A DNA stretch of 27,902 bases, from positions 1 through 27,902 of the IMG/VR virus record IMGVR_UViG_3300005077_000117, one strand, 5' to 3'. Within the stretch, counting starts at the first letter, position 1. Each line of letters begins with the position of its first letter. The stretch is from a virus. Its lineage: Duplodnaviria; Caudoviricetes. The notes beneath the pieces were generated by a model. The model searched no databases. It worked only from the letters and a program-made list of their open reading frames with translations, and was not told where the DNA came from. This document shows positions 2,790 through 16,872 of this stretch, in pieces. The translations under genes were made by a program, and so were the position numbers.

Positions 2790-3748
2790 AGCATGACCAG
2801 GCGGACTTCATCGTTGCCGCTGACCGGCAGCACCCGCAGGGTGTATTCCATCAGCAGCAGGCCGTCCTTGTCGGTGGGCTTGGGGCTGGTGAGCTGGACC
2901 GCGGGCAGGTACAGCAAGGCCTTGTTGCCGGTGGTGGTCCCGATCACCAGGCCCAGGCTCATGGTGGTGTTGGCCTCCACATGGCCGGCGAAGGTAACCT
3001 CCTGGGCCGCGGTGAGATTCAGTTGCATGGTGGCGGTGGACGCGCGGTCGGTGATGCTGACCGACTCCGAGCCGAGCAGCGCCAGATGGGTGACCACCTG
3101 GCCCAGGTCCAGCTCGATGCCGCCGCTGACGTATTCGGTGCCGCCGCTCAGGGCGCCGGCGGCATAGGTGCAGCCCAGGGTGATCTGTCCGCAGTTGGCA
3201 TCGGTGAGCACAAACGGCACCTTAAACGCGGAATCGTCCACCCCACTGGGGGTAGCCGCCGCGGGGCCGCCGTCGACACCAACGAACTCGAAGCTCAGGC
3301 TGGGAATCTCGCCCACCAGGGCGGACAGCTTGACGTTGCCCTTGCTGTACAGCAGTTTGTAGCGGGCGCCGTCGCGGAAATAATACTGACTGGCGCTTTC
3401 CTGGCCGGTGGTGACGGGCAGATATTCGACCCGATCGGGGGTGGCCTCGATGTTCTGGTCCATGCCGCAGGCGCGCAGCAGGGGACCATAGGCCGGGGGC
3501 GTGCCGGCGGCGCCGCTGCCGGCCAGTTCGACGGGATAGCTCAGCTTGGCGTATTTCACCCCGGCCAGCTGGGCCTTGGCGCCGAAATAGCTGGCGAGGA
3601 CGTTGCGTTCCTTGTTGTCGTAGTTCACCTCGTGGCTGGGCTCGCCGCAGAGGATGGCATTGGCGGCGCCGGTGGGCACCGCGTCGGTGCCGGGGGTGGT
3701 CTCGATCTTCGCCAGGACGGTGGAATTTCGTAGATATCGCTCGGACAT
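2786..3748 (-). CDS. Major tail tube protein
   Basis: 320 aa from MSERYLRNSTVLAKIETTPGTDAVPT; GSGAAGTPPAYGPLLRACG motif; AAGGAG RBS; lies upstream of the chaperones. Confidence 0.85.
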   Translation of the reverse strand: MSERYLRNSTVLAKIETTPGTDAVPTGAANAILCGEPSHEVNYDNKERNVLASYFGAKAQLAGVKYAKLSYPVELAGSGAAGTPPAYGPLLRACGMDQNIEATPDRVEYLPVTTGQESASQYYFRDGARYKLLYSKGNVKLSALVGEIPSLSFEFVGVDGGPAAATPSGVDDSAFKVPFVLTDANCGQITLGCTYAAGALSGGTEYVSGGIELDLGQVVTHLALLGSESVSITDRASTATMQLNLTAAQEVTFAGHVEANTTMSLGLVIGTTTGNKALLYLPAVQLTSPKPTDKDGLLLMEYTLRVLPVSGNDEVRLVML

Positions 3749-5593: not shown

Positions 5594-7507
5594 TCAGACG
5601 CCGGCGTTCTTGGCCAGGGCCTTCCAGTCCAGGGCCTTGGCGGCGGCGTCGATGCGCACCTTGTATTCCACGCCGTCCACGTTCCAGCCGCTCTTGGTCT
5701 CCAGGTACGGGGTCTGCTGGCCGTTGAGGAAAAAGACCGTGACGGTCATGCCCTTGGGGCCGGCCAGATACCAGGCGGTGGTGCTGGAGTCGTCCAGCCG
5801 CGCGTCGTACACGCGGGTAAAGCGGTTGCCGGCATAGGGGTTGGTGCGGGTCGAGCCGACGCCCGAGCCGCTGAACTGCGCCGAGTTGAAGAAAATCTCG
5901 GCCGCGCCCTCGATGGTGGCCGGGGCAATGAAGTACTGCGCGCGGATATTGAGCCGACGCTTGGCCTTCAGATCCTTCTGCAACTTCATCAGCTTGATGG
6001 CCTCGGCAATGGTGGTTTCACTCACCACCCCGGCGGTGCCCAGGTTGTTGTGGCTGGCGTAGAACAGGGCCACGCCGTCCCGCATGGCCGCATTTGCGGT
6101 CAGCACCGCATAGGCCACGTCGCCCACTTTGCGCGCGGCGGCCTCGCCGTGCTTCATGGCCGAAGCCATGGCCAGGGTGGAGGTCTTGAAGTCGGGCAGG
6201 CTGCCGGTGTTGCACCACTCGGCCCAGGTCTCGCCGGCGGTCTCGTAGCCGGCGGCCAGGCTCTTGTTGGCGATGTTGCCCAGGATGGACGGCATGTCCG
6301 AGCTGGTGATCGACCGCCCCAGCATCTCCATCACGGTGCCGCCGTCCGGCTGATTGGCCAGCACCAGCCCGCGACGGGCCAGCTCGCGCAAGGAATACCC
6401 GCGCAGCTCCTCGGCGCCGGCGGCGGGGGTGGCCACGGCAATGCCGGCCCGCAGCAAAATGGCGTCCTCGGCGGCGGCGCGGAACTTGTCGCGCTCATCC
6501 AGCCCGACCGACAGCCGGAAACCAGGTTGCGGCTGGGCGGCGCGCTGCTCGGCCACATGGTCCAGCACCTTGGCGCGGGCATCCAGCACGCTGACGCCGT
6601 CGCTCACCAGCTGGCGGGCCAGCTCGGCACAGCCCATGCGCGCGCCCATGGCCTCAATCTCGGCGATGCGCCGGCGCTCTTCAGCCACGCCGGCCCGCAC
6701 GGCGGCGTCCACATCGGGCGCGCCGGCAGTGTCCGTCGGGTCCAGGGGCATGACGCGGAGAAACTCCAGCGCCTCGTTTTCGGTGGCGGTCTGGGCAAGT
6801 CCCCGGCTTTCCAGGAACGCCCGCAGTCGTGGGTCCATAGCGGTCTCCTTCTTTTGCGGCTCGGGGTTGCTTGCCCTGGCCTCGGTTATGATGGCGGCCG
6901 CGGCGCGAGCCTTGGCCCCTTCATCCGCCCCGATGGGGCAGATACTCAGCTCCTTCACGCGCCAGGCGGTGACCACCCGCACGGGTCCGGCAAAACTCCG
7001 GCCCTCGATCACCGCGCTCTGTCCCTCCGGCACCCACACCGCCCCGCCGGGCTCGACCGCCCCACCGGGCTCGATGCGATAGCCGATGGAAAAGTCGGTC
7101 AGGTGTCCGGCCCGCACCTTGTTCCAGGCGCTCTCCACCGCCGGATCGTCGGCGAAATGCACGCGGGCCACCAGACGGTCGCCCTCCACCCGCAGGTTGC
7201 GGGCCGAGCCCATCACCGAGGCGACGCCGCCGCGATCATGGGTGTCCAGCAGCGGCACCTGCCGATTGTCCGGCAGCCGCGCGCCGCTCATCAGCAGCAC
7301 CTCGTCGATGGGCTCCCAGCGCTCCCAGTCCATCACCCGCACCGGCGCCTCGGTGGCGCATACCGCCTCCACCGTGCGGGCGTCCTGGTCCAGGCTCAGC
7401 GGTCGGCCGTCCTCGGCCAGCGAGAGCGACAGGCCACGGGTCTGGATCTCGCGCGCCGGCGCGGATCGGGTCATCATGGGGTCAGGCCCCGGGTTCGGTG
7501 TCGTCAT
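5594..7507 (-). CDS. Prohead protease-major capsid fusion, apparently with an internal in-frame deletion
   Basis: N-terminal HK97-type protease motifs (VPLLDTH, DFSIGY, ELSICPIGAD). C-terminal capsid motifs (SDMPSILGNIANKSL, DFKT, ALFYASHNNL, WNVDGVEYKVRID). Confidence 0.9.
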   Translation of the reverse strand: MTTPNPGPDPMMTRSAPAREIQTRGLSLSLAEDGRPLSLDQDARTVEAVCATEAPVRVMDWERWEPIDEVLLMSGARLPDNRQVPLLDTHDRGGVASVMGSARNLRVEGDRLVARVHFADDPAVESAWNKVRAGHLTDFSIGYRIEPGGAVEPGGAVWVPEGQSAVIEGRSFAGPVRVVTAWRVKELSICPIGADEGAKARAAAAIITEARASNPEPQKKETAMDPRLRAFLESRGLAQTATENEALEFLRVMPLDPTDTAGAPDVDAAVRAGVAEERRRIAEIEAMGARMGCAELARQLVSDGVSVLDARAKVLDHVAEQRAAQPQPGFRLSVGLDERDKFRAAAEDAILLRAGIAVATPAAGAEELRGYSLRELARRGLVLANQPDGGTVMEMLGRSITSSDMPSILGNIANKSLAAGYETAGETWAEWCNTGSLPDFKTSTLAMASAMKHGEAAARKVGDVAYAVLTANAAMRDGVALFYASHNNLGTAGVVSETTIAEAIKLMKLQKDLKAKRRLNIRAQYFIAPATIEGAAEIFFNSAQFSGSGVGSTRTNPYAGNRFTRVYDARLDDSSTTAWYLAGPKGMTVTVFFLNGQQTPYLETKSGWNVDGVEYKVRIDAAAKALDWKALAKNAGV

Positions 7508-11834: not shown

Positions 11835-13753
11835 CACCACCTCGATTGCGTTGATTTTTTTTGTTCGGCCGCGTCGGCCTGCCGCGCCGGCCGCTTCTCC
11901 CCGGGTCGCCGCGGCAACCGGCTCTTGACCATGTGCCGCAGGGCCAGGGCATAGTTGGTGCAGTCCCAGTAGTCGTTGCGCTGCCGCCGATCGTGCACCC
12001 AGCCGCCGTCCGGGGTCTTTTTCTCCGCCGTGAAGTGGGCGGCGAAATGCTCGTCGATCCCGGCATGGAACGACAGCGCGCCGGCGTCGTCCGGCTCCAT
12101 GGCCAGCAGCCGTTCCAGCTGGTCTTTGAAATCGTCCACGCGGATGTTCACCCGCGTCAGGCCCCCCTTGATGGCCCGCGACGTACCCGGCAGGGTGACG
12201 ATGGACCGATAGGACACGATCTCACCGGCGCCGCCGGCCACGCCCTTGTGCGGCATCATTGTTCGGTGGCGGCTGCACCACTCATAGACCTCCACCGTCC
12301 GGCTGTGTTTCTTCCAACCGGCGCGGGTGCCGCCGCTGTCGATCAGCCCGGCGCGGATATGGTAGGGGTGGCCCGCGTGGTCCAGCCATTCGCGCTCCAG
12401 CAGGCCCTCCAGGTCGGCAAACGTCTGCACCTGGCCATGGCGCATCATGTGCAGCGCCGCCCCCGGCGCGTAGCCGCAGGCCCACACCTCGTAGTAGAAC
12501 GACACCTGCTGCGTATCCACCAGCAGCCACACCATGGCCGTGTCCGGCGGCACCAGGTTGCGCGGCCGGTCCGACGCGCGAAACCGCAGCAGCCCGGCCG
12601 AGGTCACCGCCACCACCGCGCGCTCCGGCACGTCCTCGGCCTCGATGCCGTGGTGCCAGGCGGACTCGTCGGCGGGCAGTCCGCTTTGTTTCCGCAACCA
12701 GGCGCGGGCAATCTCCAAGAGCGGCACGTCCAGGCAGTCCCAGGCGCGGTGATGCACCCCCACCAGGTCCGGCTTGGCCACCTCGGCGCCGCGAATGCAG
12801 ACCCAGCCTCCGGACAGCCGCGCCAGTTGCAGGTCCTGTTCGCCCCACAGCCCGCCGCACTCCGGGCAGGCCACCTGCACCGCCCGCGCCGGCAGGGTCT
12901 CCGGCTCGGCGCCCTCCGGCACCACCAGGTGATCCCCCGTCGGCCGCACCATGCCGCCGCAGTGGGGACACCACAAGCGATGCTCCCACACCTGCGCGCA
13001 GGCCATGGTGTGGCGATAGATGAACCGGTTCTGCGGGGTGCTGCAGAAAAAGGCCTTGCCCAGGCCGCGATAGGTCCGCAGCCGCTTCAATATCTGCCGC
13101 ACCGGGTCCGTGGCGGTGCCGCCGGTGGCGGGGAACTGATCGATCTCGTCGGCAAAAATGTACTTGGCGCTGTAGGTGGCCATGCTCACATTGCTGTTGG
13201 CCCAGGCGGTATGTATGGTCACCCCGTTGGCCAGCACCATGCGCCGCTGGCTTTCGTCGTCGTGCCGCCGCGACAGATAGCGTTGCAGCCGCGGCGAGGC
13301 GTGCAGCATGGGCCGTATCTTGCCCGCCGCCACCTTGTCCGCCGTGTGCTCGGTGGGCATCACGTAGAAAATATCGCCCGGCGCGCAGTCGATGCCCCAG
13401 CCCATGGCGTTCAGCATGGTGTTGGTCTTGCCGCTCTGGTCCACGCCGCAGAACCACAGCTGCTGCACCCAGGGCTGGCCGTACAGTTCCAGGATTTTTT
13501 TCGTGTGCGGGGCATACTCGTAACGCCACGGCCCCACATGCGCCCCATCGGTGACCACGCGATGCAGCGGCGCCCACAGCTCGGCCGGGGTCCGCCGCGG
13601 CTGCCGCGCCCGCAGCCGCACCGCCCGCCCCGGCCGCCTCAACGACACCGAGTTCCCGCCCAGCCGCTCTGCCAGCCAGGAGGGCAACCCCGGCACCAGC
13701 GGCACCAGCCGCCGGCAGAGGGTGGGTTGGATAGCTGATTCAGCCAGATTCAT
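11834..13753 (-). CDS. Terminase large subunit, lambda GpA family
   Basis: Walker A DQSGKT, Walker B IFADEID, coupling motif CSTP, CPHC/CPEC zinc motif, nuclease motifs VDTQ and IDSGG, C-terminal NDYWDC. Confidence 0.95.
   Translation of the reverse strand: MNLAESAIQPTLCRRLVPLVPGLPSWLAERLGGNSVSLRRPGRAVRLRARQPRRTPAELWAPLHRVVTDGAHVGPWRYEYAPHTKKILELYGQPWVQQLWFCGVDQSGKTNTMLNAMGWGIDCAPGDIFYVMPTEHTADKVAAGKIRPMLHASPRLQRYLSRRHDDESQRRMVLANGVTIHTAWANSNVSMATYSAKYIFADEIDQFPATGGTATDPVRQILKRLRTYRGLGKAFFCSTPQNRFIYRHTMACAQVWEHRLWCPHCGGMVRPTGDHLVVPEGAEPETLPARAVQVACPECGGLWGEQDLQLARLSGGWVCIRGAEVAKPDLVGVHHRAWDCLDVPLLEIARAWLRKQSGLPADESAWHHGIEAEDVPERAVVAVTSAGLLRFRASDRPRNLVPPDTAMVWLLVDTQQVSFYYEVWACGYAPGAALHMMRHGQVQTFADLEGLLEREWLDHAGHPYHIRAGLIDSGGTRAGWKKHSRTVEVYEWCSRHRTMMPHKGVAGGAGEIVSYRSIVTLPGTSRAIKGGLTRVNIRVDDFKDQLERLLAMEPDDAGALSFHAGIDEHFAAHFTAEKKTPDGGWVHDRRQRNDYWDCTNYALALRHMVKSRLPRRPGEKRPARQADAAEQKKSTQSRW
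13664..13732. repeat. 69-bp direct repeat, copy A (inside terminase 5' end)
   Basis: Exact match to 15551-15619; encodes IQPTLCRRLVPLVPGLPSWLAER. Confidence 0.95.
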
Positions 13754-13773
13754 CACCGGCAATCTCCCAGAAC

Positions 13774-13826
13774 AAAAAAAAGGCCCCGCCTCCACTGGAT
13801 ACAATCCAGTAAAGAAGCTGGGCCTT
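13774..13826 (-). terminator. Long-stem terminator just upstream of the terminase start
   Basis: AAGGCCC..ACTGGAT-TGT-ATCCAGT..GGGCC followed by TTTTTTTT on the minus strand. Confidence 0.8.
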
Positions 13827-13881
13827 ACGGCACAGCTCAACACACGGGTCGCACAGGGCCGCTACGCGGCACGGTGCTTAT

Positions 13882-13989
13882 TTAGTTTTTTCGACTGCTT
13901 GTCTTTCCGATCCCGAATTCCTTCTCCAGCAGCGCGACAAACATCTTCGCCACCTGATAGAGAATTCGAACCAGCACGTTTTCGGTCAC
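13882..13989 (-). CDS. 35-aa amphipathic peptide (not in ORF track)
   Basis: AAGGAG RBS then GTG: MTENVLVRILYQVAKMFVALLEKEFGIGKTSSRKN*. Confidence 0.5.
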   Translation of the reverse strand: MTENVLVRILYQVAKMFVALLEKEFGIGKTSSRKN

Positions 13990-13990
13990 G

Positions 13991-14073
13991 CTGTCTCCTT
14001 GCTGAAAAAAACCTTGCCTTGTGAGGACGCTACTGGCCTGGCCTTGAGTCGCCATGACATGCGATGTATTCCG
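13991..14073 (-). ncRNA. Second, degenerate pentamer unit with conserved 3' tail (candidate guide RNA 2)
   Basis: Minus strand: CGGAA TACAT CGCAT GTCAT GGCGA CTCAA GGCCA GGCCA GTAGC GTCCT CACAA GGCAA GGTTTTTTTCAGCAAGGAGACAG. The tail matches 14634-14666 apart from one extra T. Confidence 0.55.
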
Positions 14074-14631
14074 TCAGCACATCAACAGTTCCTTGACGGC
14101 AAACTTCCCGTAATAGCCGTTGTTTCTCGGGCGAAACCGACCGATGCCGATAATCTCCCCCGCCATGACCAGGTGGTCGTGCAACACATTTTCTGTAATA
14201 ATTTCATCAAATATCCGAAACGTCACCTCACCGGACCACTGGTGGATGATGGGAAAGCACTTCACCACCCGCTTGCCGCCGCCGCGCCGACCGTCGGAGG
14301 GCACGAAGAGCAACTCGCTGTCCACCTCGTCCTTCTTGATCGGCAAGACCAATTCTGACGTCACCATCACCCCCGCCTCGATATGCTTGGTGTAGGTCGC
14401 CTTTCCCCCTCCAGGAATCTTCATTGACAGGTACCGCGCCGCGTCCGACAGGCAATTCTTGAACGCCATCGGCGGGATGAAGATATAGCCATCCTTGTTG
14501 GCCCAGCACCGTTCCCGCCAGGTACGGTCCTCGTAGTCACGCTGTATCTCGCGCTCCAGTTTCGGCACATCGTAGAACCTGCTCTGACTGTACGCACTCA
14601 TCGATTCAAGCCGCGCGATTGCTGTCTTCAT
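14074..14631 (-). CDS. Stand-alone Cas7/RAMP-like RNA-binding protein (Vipr-like)
   Basis: 185 aa from MKTAIARL with AAGGAG RBS. RAMP-like motifs GYIFIPPMAFKNCLSDAA and RVVKCFPIIHQWSGEVTFRI, plus a C-terminal Gly-rich loop AGEIIGIGRFRPRNNGYYGKFAV. The 328-aa track ORF is an artefactual extension through the repeat. Confidence 0.8.
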   Translation of the reverse strand: MKTAIARLESMSAYSQSRFYDVPKLEREIQRDYEDRTWRERCWANKDGYIFIPPMAFKNCLSDAARYLSMKIPGGGKATYTKHIEAGVMVTSELVLPIKKDEVDSELLFVPSDGRRGGGKRVVKCFPIIHQWSGEVTFRIFDEIITENVLHDHLVMAGEIIGIGRFRPRNNGYYGKFAVKELLMC

Positions 14632-14633
14632 TT

Positions 14634-14815
14634 CTGTCTCCTTGCTGAAAAAACCTTGCCTTGTGATGCCCCGCCTCGCCTTGCCATGCCCTGCCTTGCC
14701 AGGCCCCGCCTTGCCTCGCCTTGCCATGCCTTGCCTCGCCTCGCCGTGCCACGCCCCGCCAAGCCCCGCCGCGCCCTGCCCCGCCCTGCCATGCCCTGCC
14801 GCGCCAAGCCCTGCC
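14634..14815 (-). ncRNA. GGC-NN pentamer array (30 uninterrupted units, 14666-14815) plus conserved 3' tail; candidate guide RNA
   Basis: Invariant GGC every 5 nt with variable dinucleotides; intergenic, directly upstream of the RAMP-like gene. Confidence 0.85.
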
Positions 14816-14842
14816 GAGGACAAAAAATATATCAACCAACCA

Positions 14843-15358
14843 TCATCCCTGTTCTTTTTCCAGGCCATCGCCGGACAGCGCCTCAAAGCACACCCCAACC
14901 GGCAGCGGGCTGGCGCAGTTGCTGATACAGCGCGCGGCAACGGCCTTGCGTGACGGCGCCGTGCAGGCGTGGTGCAGCGCTTGCAGCATGGACCCCACCA
15001 GGTTGTGCTGGCGACGATCCTCATGCGACAGCGAATTGTAGTCCGTCGCCGCCAGCACACTCATTCCCCGGAATGACACCCGCCGATTCTTGTCGATGTG
15101 CCCGTCCGCGTGGTGTAATTTTTCCCGCTCCGTCATGCGGTACAGCCCTGTGTTCTTGATCACGCCGAAGATAATGCCGCGATCAGCCTGCAAGCGTCCG
15201 CGCGCACTGCGCAGTGACGACGTGGAGCTGTCCACCCGGCGGCCAATGACCCGGCCTATTTCCGCATACGTCACCTGACCCGAGACCTCGACATGCGACA
15301 GCAGCTCCATGATGGCCAGCATGTCCATTTTGTCGCGTTTCGTGAAATCAACCTCCAT
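14843..15358 (-). CDS. Putative winged-HTH protein associated with the RAMP/pentamer locus
   Basis: About 171 aa with VTYAEIGRVIGRRV..LRSARGRL...GIIFGVIKNTGLYRM. GGAGGT RBS before ATG 15358; alternative start at 15370. Confidence 0.65.
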   Translation of the reverse strand: MEVDFTKRDKMDMLAIMELLSHVEVSGQVTYAEIGRVIGRRVDSSTSSLRSARGRLQADRGIIFGVIKNTGLYRMTEREKLHHADGHIDKNRRVSFRGMSVLAATDYNSLSHEDRRQHNLVGSMLQALHHACTAPSRKAVAARCISNCASPLPVGVCFEALSGDGLEKEQG

Positions 15359-15386
15359 GATCACCTCCATGATGCAAACACCTCAT

Positions 15387-15545
15387 TCACCACCCCAGAG
15401 CCACGCGCGCCCGCTTGGTGGCGCACGGCACGCACTTGCAGCGCTCAACCATCCCCGCTTGGCACGATGCGCGCATCGCGTGCGCGGCCAACAGGTCGGT
15501 AAGCGCCTCAACCAGCAGAGCCTCGCGTTTCTGGTAGTCGCTCAT
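15387..15545 (-). CDS. Small Cys-containing hypothetical protein
   Basis: 52 aa MSDYQKREALL...CKCVPC; ATGA-coupled to the terminase remnant. Confidence 0.45.
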   Translation of the reverse strand: MSDYQKREALLVEALTDLLAAHAMRASCQAGMVERCKCVPCATKRARVALGW

Positions 15546-15634
15546 CTCGCCCGCTCTGCCAGCCAGGAGGGCAACCCCGGCACCAGCGGCACCAGCCGCC
15601 GGCAGAGGGTGGGTTGGATGGTGGCGTGGCTCAT
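15542..15634 (-). pseudogene. Orphan terminase N-terminal remnant containing 69-bp repeat copy B (15551-15619)
   Basis: MSHATIQPTLCRRLVPLVPGLPSWLAERAR*, coupled by ATGA to the methyltransferase stop. Confidence 0.8.
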
Positions 15635-16872
15635 CCGGGAAATTCCCGGCCGGTAGCCTCCAGCGTGGCCTTCTTCCCGGTGAATTGCTGCCAGCGCCGG
15701 ACAGCGACGTCGACGTAAAGGGCATCCATTTCCATGCCACGGTATTCCTTCCCGACTTGTTCGCAGGCGATCATCGTTGTTCCGCTGCCGTTGAATGGAT
15801 CGGCCACCGTGCGCACAAACGGCACATTTTGCAACAGCGCGGCCACGACATCGACTGGCTTTTCTGTCGTGTGATGGAAATTTCCAGTACGCTTGCCGTG
15901 CAGCACGTTGCCAACTCCGGGTGCATGCTTGTCGAATGGCGCCGTCTGTTTGCACCCCCACAGCACAAGCTCGTGCTGAGCCCTCCAGCCACGGCCCATC
16001 CCTGGGGTGCCTTTATCCCACACAATCATTGACCCCACGCCGAAACCAGACGATTCAGACACATCAAAAAGGTATATCCACATCCGCCAGTCGGTGAAGG
16101 CGTAGAGATACTGCGCGCCGAACAGAGAAAAAGCAGACTTGAGCAGCGCGCTATAGCCGCGAGTCGATAACGTGTCGTTGGCCACCATTTTGTGCTTGGC
16201 ACTGGTGCCGACCGACCCGCTACTCTTTCCGTTTTCTTGAAACCCGCCGCTGCAATACGGCGGGTCGGTGCATACCAGGTCGACGGTGGCGCCGACCAAT
16301 AACCTTTCGACATCACCGGACAATGTACTATCCCCGCACATCAGGCGATGCCGCCCCAGCAGCCACACGTCACCAGGCTTTGTGATGGCTTCGGCCTGCG
16401 CCTCCGGCACTGCATCCGGGTCAGTCAGGCCCTCGATACCGGTGGCACCATCGCCCAGCAACCTGGACATCTCTGTCTCGCTGAATCCGGTCAGCTCCAC
16501 GTCGTATCCGTCCAGCTTCAAGTCTTCCAGCTCAATGGCCAGCAGTTCCTCGTTCCACTCGGCCAGGTCGTTCAGCCGGTTGTCGGCGATGCGGTAGGCC
16601 TTTTTCTGCGCCCTGGTGAGGCCCTCGGCCACATGCACCGGCACCGTTGCCAGACCAAGCCGCCGGGCCGCCTTCAGCCGGGTATGTCCCACCAGGATAA
16701 CCATGTCCTCGTCCACCACGATCGGCTGACGAAAGCCGAACTCGCGGATGGACTTCGCCACCGCCGCCACCGCCTGGTCGTTTTTGCGCGGATTGGCACC
16801 ATAAGGCCGTACCTGGTCAACGGGCACCTGTTGCACCAGCATTCCACCCTCCATGTCCGGTCGAAAACTCAT
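15631..16872 (-). CDS. ParB-like N-terminal domain fused to N6/N4 DNA methyltransferase
   Basis: NPRKND..SIREFGFRQPIVVD..GHTRLKAA..YRIADNR (ParB/Srx); TDPPY, HTTEKP and DPFNGSGTT (beta-class MTase). Alternative start at 16842. Confidence 0.92.
   Translation of the reverse strand: MSFRPDMEGGMLVQQVPVDQVRPYGANPRKNDQAVAAVAKSIREFGFRQPIVVDEDMVILVGHTRLKAARRLGLATVPVHVAEGLTRAQKKAYRIADNRLNDLAEWNEELLAIELEDLKLDGYDVELTGFSETEMSRLLGDGATGIEGLTDPDAVPEAQAEAITKPGDVWLLGRHRLMCGDSTLSGDVERLLVGATVDLVCTDPPYCSGGFQENGKSSGSVGTSAKHKMVANDTLSTRGYSALLKSAFSLFGAQYLYAFTDWRMWIYLFDVSESSGFGVGSMIVWDKGTPGMGRGWRAQHELVLWGCKQTAPFDKHAPGVGNVLHGKRTGNFHHTTEKPVDVVAALLQNVPFVRTVADPFNGSGTTMIACEQVGKEYRGMEMDALYVDVAVRRWQQFTGKKATLEATGREFPG

Follow-up and report, generated by a model that had tools for sequence, protein, structure and literature searches.

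The window analysed here, a stretch of 27,902 bases with a G+C content of 63%, encodes a portal, a head protease-capsid, tail proteins, a primase, a CII-like regulator and an integrase, and the presence of integrase, CII-like regulator and tail genes identifies its source as a temperate tailed phage. Protease and capsid are fused in one 637-aa ORF (5594-7507, minus strand) that matches both major head protein and head maturation protease (phrog_4523 and phrog_133). Downstream of a ParB-methylase gene lies a cassette whose members all occupy the minus strand: a 52-aa ORF, a 175-aa partner gene, an array of pentameric repeats, a 185-aa gene that we annotate as vipr, a second copy of the array's tail, a 35-codon ORF and a terminator (Table 1). 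The next gene after vipr, again on the minus strand, encodes a GpA-type large terminase (terL), which places the array 0.9 kb from terL. Neither a CRISPR repeat-spacer array nor other cas genes were found in the window, and Tandem Repeats Finder reported no period of 24-48 nt.

Table 1. Features of the cassette and its borders, in the order in which the minus strand is read
Feature	Position	Strand	Description
ParB-methylase	15631-16872	-	Upstream of the 52-aa ORF
69-nt perfect direct repeat, upstream copy	15551..15619	-	Truncated terL start MSHATIQPTL...AERAR*
52-aa ORF, cassette head	15387..15545	-	PHROG match absent
vap candidate	14843..15370	-	175 aa; N-terminal winged helix, helical C-terminal half; from homologues, AF2 and VIA-align
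vrRNA-A guide region	14666..14815	-	30 uninterrupted GGCNN units = 60 variable bases; from sequence and unit table, period 5
vrRNA-A 3′ tail	14634..14665	-	CACAA GGCAA GG, U-run, CAGCAAGGAGACAG; read from sequence
vipr	14074..14631	-	185-aa Cas7-like RAMP; from PDB match, hhalign, AF2 and Foldseek
vrRNA-B candidate	13991..14053	-	Six degenerate units GGCGA CTCAA GGCCA GGCCA GTAGC GTCCT plus tail copy
35-codon ORF	13882..13989	-	GTG start behind second tail and ribosome-binding site; read from sequence
Intrinsic-terminator-like hairpin + U8, cassette end	13774..13826	-	-29.9 kcal/mol, z -4.6, 0/200 shuffles as good
69-nt perfect direct repeat, downstream copy	13664..13732	-	In frame in terL 5′ end (MNLAESAIQPTL...)

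Read from 14815 to 14666 on the minus strand, the array begins with GGCAG GGCTT GGCGC and keeps its GGC fixed in 30 of 30 units, while the two variable positions (NN) take ten different forms (AG, GG and AA five times each, AT and GA four times, TT and GC twice, and GT, AC and CT once). A purine stands first in the NN of 27 of the 30 units, C fills just 4 of the 60 variable bases, and past unit 14 the NN composition changes from G-rich to A-rich. An array of this length is far more than chance would produce, since no other run of GGCNN units on either strand of the window exceeds three. Tandem Repeats Finder described it with a period of 5 (29.8 copies, 72% matches); periods of 10, 15 and 20 reached matches of just 73-76% and thus fit no better, so that a higher-order period is not real. 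These results bear out a sequence-only reading of the same DNA, which had listed the invariant GGC and the NN series (our re-reading agrees letter for letter), had called the NN pairs diverse and non-periodic, and had set the array apart from a slippage microsatellite, the GGC being constant while NN varies. The array continues beyond 14666 with a unit 31 that reads CACAA (14661-14665) and a unit 32 that reads GGCAA (14656-14660), followed by GG, TTTTTT, CAGCAAGGAGACAGAA and the ATG of the 185-aa gene at 14631. It lies upstream of that gene at a distance of 35 nt, on the same strand. Rfam yielded none of its families at gathering thresholds in the whole window and, at E ≤ 1 over 13500-15800, three hits only, all at chance level; a sigma-70 promoter scan of 13800-15700 found none.

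Among all PDB chain sequences, the 185-aa protein has a sole significant match, chain 36pp_D, 'SUSP1 Vipr protein', with an E value of 9.4e-4 for the single sequence and of 6.2e-7 for a profile of 28 homologues (A1). Alignment of the 28-sequence profile by hhalign with SUSP1 Vipr itself gave 96.6% and E 5.8e-10 over 125 columns, and the two proteins share about 28% identity over the aligned part. The AF2 model (pLDDT 90.7, pTM 0.83) has a beta-alpha core, and in Foldseek it matched 69 PDB chains at E ≤ 1e-3 (best 8z4j_J, 3.3e-6); the matches listed are Cas7-type RAMPs, namely type VII Cas7, Csm3, Cmr4, gRAMP and a type I-A Cascade chain. A beta-hairpin 'thumb' with the tip DGRRGGGKR spans residues 104-129, as assigned from the secondary structure of the predicted model. 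The protein also contains a G-loop (GIGRFRPRNNGYYGKF) that aligns as GIGRFRPR..GKF with GVGDWRPR..GRF of SUSP1, and it ends in GIGRFRPRNNGYYGKFAV, which we take to be a RAMP-like glycine loop. Two SUSP1 positions, D177 and R138, which belong to the published RNA-contact residues (10.64898/2026.04.26.720927), are not conserved in the 36pp_D alignment, where they correspond to R165 and F126 of the window protein; the SUSP1 residues W178 and R179 align with F166 and R167. By sequence match and predicted fold, with the RAMP hallmarks of RRM core, glycine-rich loop and thumb, the 185-aa protein is a Vipr homologue, a minimal Cas7-related RAMP.

The protein family around it comprises 3,362 members at E ≤ 0.001, the nearest of them 68% identical, and no close relative of the window turned up in the collections searched. 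Its named members carry only the label 'hypothetical protein' and come from Ca. Accumulibacter and Aquabacterium; by these names the host of the phage is probably a betaproteobacterium. Among 50,697 phage records, blastn with 13900-15500 gave no match and tblastn with Vipr gave nothing below E 0.1, SUSP1 and its relatives appearing at about E 1 over residues 127-180. A Vipr scan with the single sequence returned one viral locus (L137, in which an upstream array is absent) and one genome locus (L138, Lentimicrobiaceae).

The 175-aa partner gene closely precedes the array, which gives the order partner, array, vipr. Of 80 Vipr loci, 32 encode a homologue of it (23-35% identity), which stands just downstream of vipr in 29 and upstream in three. 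As a query on its own, the partner sequence found only itself among 5.8 billion proteins, and the partner profile found 51 unnamed proteins; Pfam and PHROGs hold no family for it. In its AF2 model (pLDDT 91.5), the N-terminal domain is ordered helix-strand-helix-helix-strand-strand, and VIA-align placed residues 6-79 on winged-helix domains with Z scores from 8.8 to 6.3, among them MAGE-G1 (Z 8.8, rmsd 2.5, 74 residues), PurR (Z 7.7) and ScpB (Z 7.3). Foldseek with the same model returned zero matches at E ≤ 1e-3, its weak rows being mostly winged-helix regulators. The comparison with SUSP1 Vap1 was not significant (hhalign 5.6%, E 0.0068). With vap genes termed 'predicted DNA-binding' in the published account (10.64898/2026.04.26.720920) and a winged-helix N-terminus predicted here, the partner is a vap candidate of the DNA-binding kind.

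VIPR was first described in 2026 from an enterobacterial and a pseudomonad clade. As described there, the system comprises a minimal Cas7-like RAMP called Vipr, an accessory gene, vap, and vrRNAs, each of which has 9-16 GGY/NN repeats and a constant tail in an RNA of less than 100 nt; the range of 9-16 repeats is a description of the studied clades, not a criterion (10.64898/2026.04.26.720920). The same account reports, with experimental proof, that the NN pairs read double-stranded DNA with one base skipped per pair, mostly the codon wobble, and that the targets lie in rival phages, prophages and satellites. It distinguishes seven VIPR types, including staggered arrays (in which one vrRNA's end is the next one's start), ribozyme-separated arrays and single-vrRNA forms, and the authors' own systems are described as having no self-target (10.64898/2026.04.26.720920). 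One Vipr protomer is reported to sit on each repeat, with the contact residues named (10.64898/2026.04.26.720927). A later paper, which also gives YP_009199429.1 as the accession of SUSP1 Vipr, adds solo vrRNAs and guides against rival VIPR systems, and its VIPR caller admits up to 40 units (10.64898/2026.10.15.759431). For the present work, VIPR arrays were taken to be at least four tandem GGY/NN (YNNGG) pentamers on the vipr strand in flanking non-coding DNA, a pattern that the window array fits.

The closest known system is the Type II VIPR of Escherichia phage SUSP1 (vipr YP_009199429.1, vap1 and four vrRNAs, as published). Both systems are phage-borne and have a small Cas7-like Vipr with a second small gene beside it, and, going by the published description of SUSP1, both have GGY/NN arrays that directly flank vipr on either side and share its strand, a constant 3′ tail and no self-target. 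They differ in that the units are all GGC in the window and mostly GGT in SUSP1 vrRNA1, in the unit count (30 versus 12), in gene order (partner-array-vipr versus vipr-vap1) and in the tail, which is a short, unstructured CAAGGCAAGG with a U-run in the window and a pseudoknot of 40-60 nt in the SUSP1 description; the partner, as noted, shows no significant similarity to Vap1. With 30 units and two tail units, the window guide RNA would measure about 170 nt, in contrast to the 9-16 units and less than 100 nt of the published vrRNAs. A temperate carrier, as in the window, is also found in the Pseudomonas fulva prophage clade of VIPR, likened here by its published description only; its guides are reported to target mostly regulators of resident prophages (10.64898/2026.04.26.720920).

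The tail of the array proved to be a signature of the clade around the window protein. For this comparison, 80 IMG/VR loci were fetched by Vipr homologues of 55-66% identity. The arrays of these loci end in CAAG[GA][CT]AAGG followed by T-rich sequence, and this motif, which is present in 51 of the 80, occurs 122 times on the vipr strand versus 0 times on the other, so that motif and strand rule together offer a quick annotation of vrRNAs in this clade. In the window it occurs twice, at 14663 and 14021, both on the minus strand. The first copy belongs to the vrRNA-A tail, in which CAGCAAGGAGACAG includes the vipr ribosome-binding site AAGGAG and for which a stable fold was not predicted (z +0.8). 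A stretch of 32 nt of this tail recurs downstream of vipr, near-exact for tail and ribosome-binding site: there, just 3′ of vipr, six degenerate units are followed by CACAAGGCAAGG, U7 and CAGCAAGGAGACAG. The second tail and the degenerate units give the window the usual upstream-plus-downstream layout, its downstream guide being, to judge from these units, decayed or very short. In the predicted fold of the whole array, the U-run pairs weakly with the AAGGAG site of vipr (14632-14655, minus strand), and this modelled pairing could link vipr translation to guide processing or to the loading of Vipr.

Arrays and vipr are tightly linked in the related loci. Perfect GGYNN arrays of at least six units are present in 34 of the 80 Vipr loci, 77 arrays lying on the vipr strand versus one on the opposite strand, mostly 12-60 nt before or after the gene. 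Many Vipr loci without perfect arrays have degenerate G[GA][CT]NN or CGCNN arrays, in line with the 'related consensus' mentioned in the VIPR paper (10.64898/2026.04.26.720920). Approached from the array side, GGCNN repeated eleven times and closed by GGC was found in at least 136 IMG/VR loci, and we estimate that about 750 stored IMG/VR stretches carry similar arrays. In the pattern-found loci the arrays are intergenic and on the sense strand, with diverse NN, often several arrays per locus and a frequent AA AA end, and they often lie directly 3′ of a gene ending in ...YG[RK]F.V..W or 5′ of a ribosome-binding site. A Vipr-profile match was obtained in 47 of the 136 pattern-found loci listed (in the DNA examined), and the array-vipr pairs of these 136 share the strand in 111 cases versus five on opposite strands.

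Four loci (L203-L206) show that arrays differ between otherwise identical loci. Their vipr genes are identical at 537 of 537 nt and their flanks are identical too, yet they hold arrays of 19, 19, 23 and 32 units with different NN. Comparison among related phages, which the sequence-only reading had called for, therefore finds NN variable against a conserved scaffold and conserved flanks, with the variability assessed one step away, on these four loci rather than on near-identical kin of the window. The L203-L206 arrays lie about 30-200 nt downstream of vipr and consist of blocks, each of which begins anew with GGCAG GGCYN, and odd joining units in them (GGAAA, GCCAC, AGCTC) repeat the leader junction. 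From their sequence, these arrays seem to lengthen at the leader end, through duplication of blocks. As to length, 172 non-microsatellite GGCNN arrays of at least 12 units in the pattern-found loci listed have a median of 13 units; seven reach at least 25 and two at least 30, and uninterrupted arrays of 25-37 units do exist. The 74 arrays beside close Vipr homologues have a median of 9 and a maximum of 25 units. The window array thus stands at the extreme of the length distribution, which leaves room for either one long guide or several joined guides.

The search for a target of the array was negative, at limited sensitivity. In the window, gapped scans with skips of 0-3 bases and 100 shuffles each gave nothing above shuffled guides; one skip-3 value of 21/30 was equalled by 3 of 100 shuffles and is taken as chance among 48 tests. 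No target above shuffled guides was found in 1.16 Mb of fetched viral loci either. Exact 9-unit seeds in which one base is skipped after each pair (NNx; units 1-9, 6-14, 11-19, 16-24 and 21-29) gave 1, 0, 12, 19 and 0 hits in IMG/VR (32 in total), none of which extends (totals 26-35/60, best 35/60), and an exact 10-unit seed (units 5-14) gave two hits in JGI metagenomes, at 33/60 each and again without extension. In both collections, the units flanking the seed hits match at chance level. A target with scattered mismatches escapes an exact seed, so that this negative result carries little weight. With units 11-19 and 16-24, most hits correspond to in-frame peptides (LGVTEEKIK, EKIKEKGLK) of AT-rich phages, and hits of this type show only a codon-like reading of the guide. 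When the skip rule was examined with 293 clade arrays over 1.19 Mb, skip 1 gave 41 guides scoring at least 0.8, a weak edge over the 22, 18 and 27 guides obtained with skips 0, 2 and 3; without 11 low-complexity guides (282 left), 34 guides scored at least 0.8 at skip 1 versus 21-29 for shuffled ones.

The sequence-only reading had proposed that the NN pairs spell one or more targets, either contiguously or with a base skipped after each pair, and had itself seen no convincing self-target by eye. The window scan concurs on the last point, and the enrichment of gapped matches over shuffled NN that it had named as a check did not appear in the window or in the 1.16 Mb of viral loci. What upholds the notion of a spelled target is family membership (Vipr homologue, partner, tail and hypervariability), and not a target of the array's own; of the two registers, it is the skipped one with its omitted wobble, not the contiguous variant, that coincides with the published VIPR rule. 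As a separate observation, when the guide is read as NNx codons, its best class match among 172 proteins is the window's own partner (13/30; 14666-14815 against 14843-15370), in the register of the invariant Ala-Arg and Gly of the partner family. A profile test of the guide against the wing region of that family was not significant (132 of 2000 shuffles equal or better), and the match may hint, at most, at the partner gene of a rival as the guide's target.

With a Vipr homologue, a partner gene, the tail of the clade and hypervariable arrays in relatives, the evidence supports the VIPR reading: judged by sequence and by analogy, the 30-unit GGCNN array is likely a vrRNA (guide-RNA) gene of a phage VIPR system. 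If the published findings on SUSP1 and Pseudomonas fulva carry over, transcription of the cassette would yield the array as a separate RNA of about 170 nt, on which Vipr protomers would polymerise, one per repeat, each GGC being buried and each NN presented. An 89-bp stretch of double-stranded DNA would serve as the target, base-paired by the 30 NN with every third base, usually the codon wobble, left out; once bound, the complex would keep a gene of a competing phage, prophage or satellite from being transcribed.

Whether such an RNA acts as one guide is a matter on which the observations point in two directions. A single uninterrupted vrRNA that nucleates a filament of about 30 Vipr protomers on an 89-bp gapped target, within a family whose arrays would grow by leader-end block duplication, is possible but somewhat doubtful; if true, VIPR filaments would be without fixed length, and duplication of blocks at the leader end would allow guides to be gained or stacked by simple repeat expansion. 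Quite conceivable, while still short of probable, is that the same VIPR system carries two or more vrRNAs head to tail, processed inside the array. This would bring the guides back to the 9-16 units of the published ones and has a precedent in the staggered arrays described in the same paper (10.64898/2026.04.26.720920); it also agrees with the long arrays of L205 and L206, which are made of shorter blocks with odd units (GGAAA, AGCTC), and with the turn from G-rich to A-rich NN past unit 14. Against joined guides stand the 30 units themselves, which contain no odd junction unit and no internal tail motif (the motif being confined to 14663 and 14021), and the uninterrupted arrays of 25-37 units among the 172 counted above.

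The remaining explanations dispense with a guide altogether. We consider it unlikely that the array is a targetless Vipr-binding track in the vipr leader, serving autoregulation via its own mRNA or as a sponge or decoy while its NN drift freely. Its position in the 5′ leader of vipr, 35 nt ahead of the start codon, would suit such a role, as would the weak predicted pairing of the U-run with the ribosome-binding site, the failure to find a target (in the window, the 1.16 Mb of loci, and with exact seeds in IMG/VR and JGI metagenomes) and the scarcity of C in NN (4/60). However, SUSP1 vrRNA1, which like the array lies upstream of vipr, is described as a working guide (10.64898/2026.04.26.720920), drift alone does not explain whole-block differences between loci with 100% identical flanks, and the scans for a target had low sensitivity. 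It is very improbable that the array arose as a microsatellite by slippage, or that it is a structural element of the DNA (a packaging site next to terL, an R-loop or a G-quadruplex) unrelated to its neighbours: although G is frequent on this strand, with a GG recurring at 5-nt intervals, and terL is only 0.9 kb off, slippage makes entire units alike, and here GGC stays constant beside ten forms of NN; the arrays are locked to one strand (77 to 1), and they track vipr rather than terminases, a terL match being present in just 2 of the 80 Vipr loci in the DNA examined. Least credible, to the point of being negligible, is that the array is translated and extends the 185-aa protein at its N-terminus with a low-complexity peptide. 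The ORF 14074-15060 is indeed open through the array and in frame with vipr, but all three frames are open over the array because its sequence lacks stop-forming letters, that ORF overlaps the 175-aa gene, and a 5-nt period is incompatible with reading-frame meaning. In addition, the start Met (M1) is invariant in 28 of 28 aligned homologues and is preceded in the window by AAGGAG, which argues against a coding extension.

The VIPR reading places the array beside better-known RNA-protein assemblies. Vipr and the Cas7 filament of class 1 CRISPR systems (Csm3, Cmr4, type VII Cas7) have a fold in common, and, as far as the published descriptions go, both use one protomer per fixed RNA step and a thumb that periodically interrupts the guide-target duplex; the step is 5 nt with three bases buried in VIPR, in contrast to 6 nt with one flipped base in class 1 Cas7, and the VIPR target is read with gaps. 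The trp RNA-binding attenuation protein (TRAP) binds 11 (G/U)AG repeats with spacers of 2-3 nt, one subunit per triplet, as a closed ring; its spacers are not known to hold information, and it is not known to target DNA. The likeness to the window array is that of a triplet-plus-spacer RNA read by an oligomer, and homology is absent. A ring of this kind, a site bound by the terminase and an R-loop or G-quadruplex element had been candidates and were dropped given the clear Vipr homology.

The borders of the cassette suggest that it was inserted recently: on either side stands a copy of the same 69 bp, duplicated from the start of the terminase gene. The present terL begins with MNLAESAIQPTL... 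and contains the downstream 69-nt repeat in frame. The upstream copy stands behind an ATG that overlaps the methylase stop and reads MSHATIQPTLCRRLVPLVPGLPSWLAERAR and then a stop, a 30-codon terL remnant. From this arrangement we infer that a VIPR cassette of 1,887 bp was inserted in the first terL codons, with 69 bp duplicated. In phage records, tblastn of TerL found only relatives below 27% identity. A cassette with its own terminator and a 69-bp duplication provides a concrete example of VIPR movement between phages. The locus also adds a well-preserved VIPR system in a G+C-rich temperate phage, with named Vipr relatives that are betaproteobacterial, and extends what is known of VIPR by a guide array of about twice the published length, a linear tail motif instead of a pseudoknot and a different partner gene. 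The logic of the gapped code could be read here from the raw sequence alone.

Array units and array ends take further forms elsewhere. Within the same Vipr clade, one locus has CGCNN units (L231, 4700-5000) and another mixes GACNN with GGCNN (L152, 5549-5700). In five IMG/VR loci (L008, L023, L133, L015 and L044), each array is followed by a conserved hairpin, for example ACACACTGCATCTC TTCG GAGGTGCAG, or by a terminator-like stem with a T-run, so that tail types vary by clade. In a further IMG/VR locus (L007, about 2980-3217, minus strand), two arrays each lie directly 3′ of a sequence resembling a tRNA 3′ end (GGTTCGACTCC T-arm plus acceptor), and thus tRNA-like elements can separate arrays.
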